Origin: Promethearchaeia archaeon
GTDB lineage: Archaea > Asgardarchaeota > Lokiarchaeia > Sigyniarchaeales > SOKP01
Assembly (NCBI GenBank): GCA_029856045.1
Contig: JAHQWG010000028.1
Coordinates: forward strand, 32,001 to 96,000
Direction: 5' to 3'
Length of the DNA: 64,000 bases
Shown here: positions 14,567 to 14,962 of the stretch, in pieces
Layout: each line of letters begins with the position of its first letter
Numbering within the stretch: the stretch's first letter is position 1
The notes under the pieces: model-generated
The model's database searches: none
What the model was told of the DNA's origin: nothing
The model's input: only the letters and a program-made list of their open reading frames with translations
Position numbers and translations under genes: made by a program

Positions 14567-14785
14567 TATAATTTACTATATAGATATTAATTTTATCCTA
14601 GATATAATTTAATAAGTGGATTTGAAACTTTTTCTTTATTTAAATGCATTTTTCTTTATAGAGTATAATCTTTTATTTTAATTCTTCTTCTAAATTTTAG
14701 ATCGAATTTTTTCCTTCTTATACTTTCACAATTAAATCCATATCTTTAAAAGCGGAACACCCATATATAAAGTAGTGCATGAAAA

Positions 14786-14890
14786 ATGATTAGTGGAAAA
14801 TTCTATTCTTATTTAAAATCGAAAATCAGTTTTGATTTTACTTTTCATATTTTGCACTACAACCCGCATCATCATAAACAACATAGCTAA
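14786..14890 (+). promoter_or_regulatory. Putative His leader peptide/attenuator: MISGKFYSYLKSKISFDFTFHILHYNPHHHKQHS*
   Basis: Hand-translated 34-aa ORF with 6 His in the last 14 codons, including CAT CAT CAT; directly upstream of hisC; overlapping inverted repeats. Confidence 0.65.
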
Positions 14891-14932
14891 TGATGCTAAA
14901 ATGCAACATGGTTTTTGAATTCTATTCTATAT

Positions 14933-14962
14933 TTTTATTCTTTCTGCGAATAAAATAGTTTT
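14933..14962 (+). terminator. Weak terminator-like hairpin between the leader ORF and hisC
   Basis: ttttattc-tttctgc-gaataaaa followed by tagtttt; the stem is AT-rich. Confidence 0.35.

Follow-up and report, generated by a model that had tools for sequence, protein, structure and literature searches.

The histidine operon in the window (the whole stretch of DNA analysed here, 64,000 nucleotides from a Promethearchaeia archaeon) is preceded by a short leader ORF rich in His codons, and the same layout of leader and hisC-first operon recurs in five lineages of Lokiarchaeia, Ca. L. ossiferum among them, whose HisC proteins are 48-74% identical. This conserved element is real, and its sequence makes it likely to be a sensor, whose output could be termination, translation or stability. 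Our best explanation of the whole is a histidine gauge that is read by the ribosome, resembles a leader-peptide attenuator and acts through termination by FttA; we consider the chances of this complete reading to be about even. Its components differ in confidence. It is very probable that the leader is translated and that histidine is sensed by ribosomes stalling on the His codons. Given such sensing, we lean slightly towards termination as the level of output.

Behind the leader, the genes run hisC-hisB-hisH-hisF-hisA/IE (a hisA-hisIE fusion)-hisG (long form)-hisD, and no second full his gene set was found in the host genome (G000). We refer repeatedly to a sister species (G001) and to the cultured Ca. 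Lokiarchaeum ossiferum B-35 (G049), which belongs to the same order within Lokiarchaeia as G000. The operon and its flanks are as follows.

14055..14566, unstranded: left copy of a 512-bp duplication, 86% identical to the right copy
21623..22134, unstranded: right copy of the 512-bp duplication
15047..16210, + strand: hisC (TIGR01141 above cut-off; frame open from 15023)
16179..21617, + strand: hisB, hisH, hisF, hisA-hisIE fusion, long-form hisG and hisD

The duplicated segment flanks leader and operon on both sides, the pattern that would be expected of an insertion. This operon type is patchy: among 161 genomes of the class, its full form occurs in G000, G001 and G049, and a partial operon of the hisC-first type in G035 and G040. 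A search with HisD did not find the operon in two genomes of the same genus that are 90% and 100% complete. The window-type HisC is 45-55% identical to sequences that mostly carry the labels Woesearchaeota, Nanoarchaeota or other archaea, and only 30-38% identical to the usual Loki HisC; a quick tree separates these two types with a support of 100, and the branch of the G000 group is long (0.71). The nearest HisC relatives (P0003-P0010 and others) frequently carry a C-terminal HAD domain fusion, and P0003 and P0004 match a HisG domain besides. As for tRNAs, the window holds tRNA-Gly(CCC) at 30772-30844 and tRNA-Gln(CTG) at 45287-45361, and ARAGORN, run with its intron search off, reported no tRNA-His in the G000 genome.

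The leader itself comprises the following features.

14745..14752, + strand: candidate TATA box, at -41..-34 from the leader ATG, suggested by the upstream sequences of homologs
14786..14890, + strand: His-rich leader ORF of 34 aa (P0164), from the ORF reading and its homologs
14846..14884, + strand: His-codon cluster (6 His), proposed as the sensor; it also supplies the 5' side of the stems formed with the post-stop segment

The initial annotation had proposed this ORF, and it is real: its 34 residues are rich in His toward the C-terminal end, with His at codons 21, 24, 28-30 and 33, i.e., six within the last 14 codons. Only 22 windows with at least six His per 14 codons exist in all six frames of the 3.34-Mb genome, where His accounts for 1.5% of codons. 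A search for His-rich upstream ORFs before homologous his operons, as the initial annotation had recommended, found them in the five lineages; the His cluster recurs in all five, its copy in G001 being frameshifted. Besides G000, the leader loci are G001, G035, G049, L154/L279, L155, L278, L156/L157 and L276/L277. The homologous leaders have 28-39 codons with 6-7 His among the last 15 (the start in G035 is uncertain), and CAT is much favoured over CAC among their His codons. The parts of the leaders upstream of the cluster are unalignable between lineages, and the frame is kept from an RTG-ATW-RG start despite four different lengths (34, 32, 35 and 28 codons). Homologous leaders have a TATA-like 8-mer at -41..-32; in the window, 14763-14771 is an alternative TATA-like stretch. 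A four-codon ORF runs across the leader ATG (window 14779-14793) in G000, G001 and L156 only.

This run of a cognate codon, kept in frame before the cognate operon in five lineages, is what makes the sensing of histidine likely, and sensing by stalled ribosomes is the sole reading that explains it.

Another conserved feature, an invariant motif just past the leader stop, was overlooked in the initial annotation.

14890..14896, + strand: ATGATGC, directly post-stop and complementary to the His codons
14895..14908, + strand: near-invariant motif GCTRMAATGCAAC plus the following A, from the alignment of homologs

In GCTRMAATGCAAC, 11 of the 13 positions are fixed, and the motif lies 4-10 nt past the leader stop in every homolog. 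It has two alternative folds: its bases can pair with G-CAY in the His cluster or, when the His codons are blocked, fold on themselves into a small hairpin predicted at -1.6 to -5.8 kcal/mol. If the G-CAY indeed pairs with the motif's AUGC, a G is expected before His runs, and for 10 of 15 runs the preceding codon does end in G, compared with 14% genome-wide (p = 5e-6). However, the motif's AAC is fixed although its His partner strand varies. Pairing with this variable strand does not explain the fixed AAC, which suggests that the motif has a binding partner, either protein or RNA; its role in regulation is a guess. We rejected the idea that the motif is a reinitiation ORF (ATG CAA), since such an ORF would differ between homologs in length and in frame with respect to the leader, and the pairing with CAT accounts for the ATG. 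No complement of the motif was found in 16S rRNA, no copy of it before other operons of the G000 genome, and no conserved downstream partner among the homologs.

It might be supposed that the CAT repeats are merely the complement of ATG repeats in an untranslated structured RNA or a DNA operator. The strong preference for CAT over CAC and the pairing of CAT with the post-stop ATGAT are in keeping with this. However, the repeats occupy a single frame that runs from a conserved start, across indels, to a stop; CAT and CAC are mixed in G035; the repeated codon specifies the very amino acid that the operon makes; and the motif lies ~110 nt beyond the presumed promoter. We therefore consider an untranslated element very improbable.

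The searches indicate that the leader is specific to its operon. Among 400 genomes of the phylum, the combined pattern of His codons plus motif has intergenic matches solely before this operon type, and the other matches that we inspected lie within or antisense to long ORFs. A sequence model separates family members (E of 5e-9 or better) from background (3.5e-5 or worse). Pattern and model searches of the phylum and class also recovered a truncated copy of the element in G040, with one change in the motif. Scans of the wider collection yielded DPANN-type and Acidobacteria loci only, and no further member of the leader family.

There are, nonetheless, other candidate amino-acid leaders. In the G000 genome, short ORFs rich in Cys, Trp and Leu precede apparent cysteine synthase, trpB2 and leuS genes, respectively.

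G000:C49, stop near 51153, + strand: Cys-rich leader, with an anti-Shine-Dalgarno (anti-SD) sequence directly after the stop
G000:C27, near 116932, + strand: Trp-rich leader
G000:C27, near 525626 (counted on the - strand), - strand: Leu-rich leader

A second family of Lokiarchaeia His leaders occurs at 11 loci (L287, L289, L290, L292, L301, L302, L304, L305, L308, L310 and L317), before hisIE-G-D-C-B-H-A-F operons. Like the window leader, it has a His-rich ORF that runs to its stop, then a strand complementary to the His codons, and it stands directly before a his operon. It differs in the operon and gene order, in having two post-stop hairpins that end at the SD, in lacking GCTRMAATGCAAC, and in its much shorter gap to the first gene. 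L295 and L313 have a hisIE-first operon without a visible leader. At many Acidobacteria loci (L079, L080, L083, L088, L090 and others), His-rich short ORFs lie ~2.6 kb upstream of hisC and have a shared GCCCGC element after them; these are probably classical attenuators.

We next consider RNA structure. The inverted repeats listed in the initial annotation are all present: GTAGTGCA at 14772-79 with TGCACTAC at 14853-60, TTGCA at 14852-56 with TGCAA at 14902-06, and GCATCAT at 14866-72 with ATGATGC at 14890-96. Its claim that the 5' stem and the stems of the His codons are mutually exclusive is borne out. An 8-bp repeat of this kind is matched in 1.4% of shuffles and one of the 5-bp class in 11%; the fold of the whole leader region has z = -2.4. 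The 5' stem is part of a longer helix, P1.

14772..14785, + strand: 5' arm of helix P1, in the leader 5' UTR, pairing with 14842-47 and 14853-60

P1 has 14 bp and -15.5 kcal/mol, a value that none of 300 shuffles equalled, and its pair probability in the free RNA is 0.97. In the model, it would shut the leader's own ribosome entry. P1 is significant in the G000 group only, with shuffle fractions of 0.09-0.30 in the other groups; in L. ossiferum, an analogous pairing is possible at the same offset and alone is not significant. In every homolog, pairing of the His codons is predicted to be possible both with the post-stop segment and with the AUGC of the motif. Local leader folds across homologs have z of -0.2 to -2.4, mostly no better than shuffles. 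The leader alignment contained no covariation, and its consensus consists of two invariant pairs only. The leader RNA has no Rfam match (chance hits only, with E above 5), and does not match the T-box model with its specifier loop and UGGN bulge.

The initial annotation further held that stalling on the His codons controls read-through, possibly by masking U-tracts from aCPSF1/FttA. The recurring His cluster supports the part of this proposal that concerns histidine sensing, while the masking step fails on geometry. The relevant features are these.

14912..14962, + strand: U-rich stretch with a weak A/U hairpin, a possible FttA substrate; its sequence is unconserved
40651-42531 of the window, + strand: aCPSF1/FttA gene (TIGR03675 above cut-off; KH_TffA and beta-CASP domains)

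A T-run had been noted near 14912 and is present as T5 at 14912-16; such a T5 run occurs in 65% of post-stop intergenic 100-mers of the G000 genome. A hairpin followed by a T-run had been placed at 14933-14962. There is indeed an A/U hairpin at 14931-56, followed by T4 at 14959-62, but neither is unusual or conserved, and the hairpin is partly deleted in G001. We rejected the 14933-62 hairpin as a terminator, as it lacks a GC stem and is unconserved, and we found no bacterial-type intrinsic terminator (a GC-rich hairpin plus U-run). The nearest T-run begins 28 nt beyond the last His codon, and the longest T-tracts of all homologs lie 44-109 nt past the leader stop. Since a ribosome footprint is ~27 nt (PMC7261190), tracts 28-109 nt away lie outside it, and a stalled ribosome is farther from them than a terminating one; direct masking of the U-tracts is therefore unsupported. 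In folding constrained by footprints, the predicted accessibility of the U-tracts is likewise unaffected by ribosome position.

Metatranscriptome contigs cover the L. ossiferum leader in four of four runs, all from one study that offers contigs only. In two runs, a contig extends from 5-10 nt inside the leader start to 10-20 nt past the stop of the micro-ORF described below, and in the remaining two the contigs continue through the locus. The contig of depth 960 is chimeric, part of it belonging to another locus. Neither starts nor terminators can be located from the ends or depths of contigs, and we did not count RNA contigs as evidence.

The same His sensor could instead have a translational output, in which the stalled ribosome frees a downstream SD or start, that of the micro-ORF ('ORF2') or of hisC, and any loss of RNA is secondary polarity. 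Several observations point this way. Positions 14842-53, which include the first His codon, are complementary at 11 of 12 positions to 15042-53, which contains the hisC ATG. In G001, footprint-constrained folding predicts that the accessibility of the SD and start rises from ~0.17 to 0.80 with stalled ribosomes queued. In addition, the Cys leader of G000 has its anti-SD directly past the stop, and in the second Loki His-leader family the last hairpin directly adjoins the SD. However, G001 is the only one of eight leaders in which the SD opens, accessibility in the others being flat or falling with ribosome position, and A/U-rich 12-mers pair readily by chance (79 inverted pairs in 561 nt). The gap from leader to next SD is 104-166 nt, and no consistent or conserved anti-SD switch to that SD was predicted across the leaders, an absence that weighs against a translational output. 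We regard this output as rather unlikely.

A further option is that the motif or the fold-back helix is a site of post-transcriptional cleavage or protection under the control of the stalled ribosome, such that the output is RNA stability. In its favour, the invariance of the motif, and of AAC especially, is unexplained by the variable His strand and points to a protein or RNA partner, and aCPSF1 is itself an endo- and exonuclease. From sequence, however, such a site is inseparable from co-transcriptional cleavage. We find it quite unlikely that stability is the output.

Termination by FttA is favoured by the conjunction of three points: the gene is present, TIGR03675 scoring above cut-off in G000 and G049; the Loki aCPSF1 ortholog terminates at U-tracts without hairpins (PMC8716108); and there is no conserved anti-SD. 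Under this preferred mechanism, transcription would start ~10-15 nt before the leader start, judging from the position of the TATA box, and a ribosome would translate the 34-codon leader. With ample His-tRNA, the ribosome would finish and depart, and the leader RNA would refold, the 5' UTR over the first His codons and the His codons over the post-stop segment. aCPSF1/FttA would then cut the bare U-rich RNA behind RNA polymerase and terminate transcription, either upstream of hisC or in its early part. Under a shortage of His-tRNA, the ribosome would be parked on the His codons and would block the fold-back helices. The post-stop motif would then be free, or in its small hairpin, and would promote read-through via a putative partner. 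Because direct masking fails, some such putative relay through the motif is needed. Reviews treat competition between ribosome and FttA as a hypothesis (PMC8116511, PMC13681488).

Among known systems, the closest is the hisL attenuator of E. coli and Salmonella (RF00514; PMC3896937). In both, a complete his operon is directly preceded by a short ORF with a His cluster, the His codons belong to alternative helices, and a 5' helix is able to close the entry site of the leader itself. In contrast to hisL, the window leader has an archaeal host, an invariant post-stop motif, no GC-rich terminator with U-run and no Rfam match, and we found no conserved terminator/antiterminator pair. For a helix relay of the hisL type, competing stems exist, with no covariation and no predicted downstream switch. 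The leader thus resembles hisL in its working but falls outside hisL on the terminator and the Rfam model. A second comparison is with Rho-dependent attenuators of the E. coli tnaC type, in which arrest occurs at the stop codon, with the ribosome lying over the loading site. The shared element would be a factor-dependent terminator as output, with FttA in Rho's role, and FttA is regarded as a functional analogue of Rho (PMC13681488, PMC8116511). The difference is that here the stall would be upstream, on the His codons, with the U-tracts out of reach.

The region between leader and hisC contains a second tier, of frameshift type, that the initial annotation also overlooked.

14998..15002, + strand: Shine-Dalgarno GAGGT, 7 nt before the micro-ORF start and not before hisC
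15010..15042, + strand: relic micro-ORF (ORF2), with HisC in its +1 frame
15022..15036, + strand: decayed candidate +1 frameshift site, comprising an SD-like GGTGA, TAT, a P-site codon and a His codon, and also a short hairpin

G001, G049, L276, L154, L155 and L278 each have a short zero-frame ORF that is led by an SD and relative to which the enzyme is in the +1 frame. The full arrangement of a well-spaced SD, a micro-ORF, GGT GAA TAT RTT CAY and HisC in +1 occurs in 6 of 7 complete relatives (the exception, G035, is without the gate) and partly in L278. The distance from start to site varies in multiples of three only. In L. ossiferum-type loci, only 2 nt separate GGTGA from the nearest ATG in the HisC frame that follows it. 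None of 54 genes compared in the G000 genome has this spacing, and because it is atypical we rejected GGTGA as an ordinary hisC SD. That ATG sits inside a hairpin whose outer pair varies between A-U, C-G and U-A. In the window, the gate looks decayed: the micro-ORF starts with ATA at 15010, where G001, L. ossiferum, L154 and L155 have ATG; the P-site codon is AAT (AAT-CAT), where relatives have ATT or GTT; and a usable ATG is available at 15047, in a typical A-rich context, where the window hisC probably starts. At L329:200-600 (G040:C197), the leader and SD are intact and the micro-ORF is broken at its GGT by foreign DNA, whose translation, judged by eye, looks like the first part of a reverse transcriptase from a group II intron; hisC is absent from the next 1.5 kb.

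A comparable junction precedes HisG. In 6 of 18 related loci, these six being of DPANN type, an ATG-led micro-ORF, preceded by an SD in five, meets HisG at NTT-CAY; all four N are represented, and in most of them the HisG frame has no ATG farther upstream. Each of twelve control sets of codons gave 0-1 matches at the HisG loci. A metagenome locus (L158:3951-3986 and 4073-4140) is a second case with two tiers: a short His-ending leader, and a CTT-CAT gate ahead of HisG. Further NTT-CAY micro-ORFs lie upstream of the HisG gate at L323:8136-8165 and L324 ~8060-8400, and the L324 leader contains an apparent tRNA-His gene (by eye).

By analogy, the arrangement fits a +1 slip at a hungry His codon like that of prfB (RF2), by which the enzyme would be made when histidine is scarce. 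Restricted to this second tier, the likeness consists of an SD-led zero-frame ORF, a compressed SD-like spacing, UAU and an NUU P site, a slow A-site codon, and a real protein in the +1 frame. It differs from prfB in that the A-site codon of the gate is His and not a stop, the host is archaeal, and the gate is decayed in the window. The sequences make it probable that a second, translational gate into HisC operates in L. ossiferum, G001, L154 and L155; backward reinitiation with hairpin-masked coupling is a possible alternative to frameshifting. More ambitiously, one can picture a two-tier histidine gauge of Asgard archaea that relies on the ribosome alone, with the motif as the recognition site for antitermination or FttA exclusion in series with a hungry-His +1 frameshift needed for HisC. 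The gate would have come with the DPANN-type operon and moved from hisG to hisC, and both tiers look intact in L. ossiferum. This combined scheme is doubtful.

The state of the gate bears on whether the element still functions here. Conceivably, the ancestor had a sensor that, following lateral insertion, is now decaying as a relic in this genus, with the operon constitutive. The gate in G000 has changed from ATG to ATA at its start and has AAT in its P site, the HisC branch of this group is long, and the duplication brackets an operon that the HisD search did not find in the two congeneric genomes. Moreover, in the G001 leader a 1-nt insertion (present in five assembly records, possibly all from one study) closes the ATG frame immediately upstream of the main His run. 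However, a +1 slip at that leader's own TTT-CAT would re-enter the run, a circumstance that may be coincidence. The differences between G000 and G001 inside the cluster, at Tyr, Lys and the stop, are synonymous, and G000 and L156 have kept the frame, the His cluster, the motif and the 14-bp P1. We consider such decay improbable.

Ribosome-mediated attenuation of amino-acid operons is textbook knowledge for bacteria. In the literature searched, which consisted mostly of non-subscription papers, we found neither a leader-peptide attenuator nor a gate by His frameshifting described for archaea; a trp leader peptide has reportedly been proposed in T. kodakarensis. With a natural leader of ~250 nt that carries a fixed motif, it would be possible to test directly whether coupling regulates archaeal genes, and also by what route a stalled ribosome passes on its signal when there is no bacterial terminator. 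The system would be amenable to reporters in Methanococcus or Thermococcus, a setting in which Loki aCPSF1 works (PMC8716108), and to the cultured L. ossiferum. No useful starvation-specific product of a hungry codon was known to an earlier account (PMC5009743). If the second tier is true, it would therefore be a purposeful case of hungry-codon frameshifting, of which that account knew no example, and the annotated start of HisC would be wrong in these genomes.
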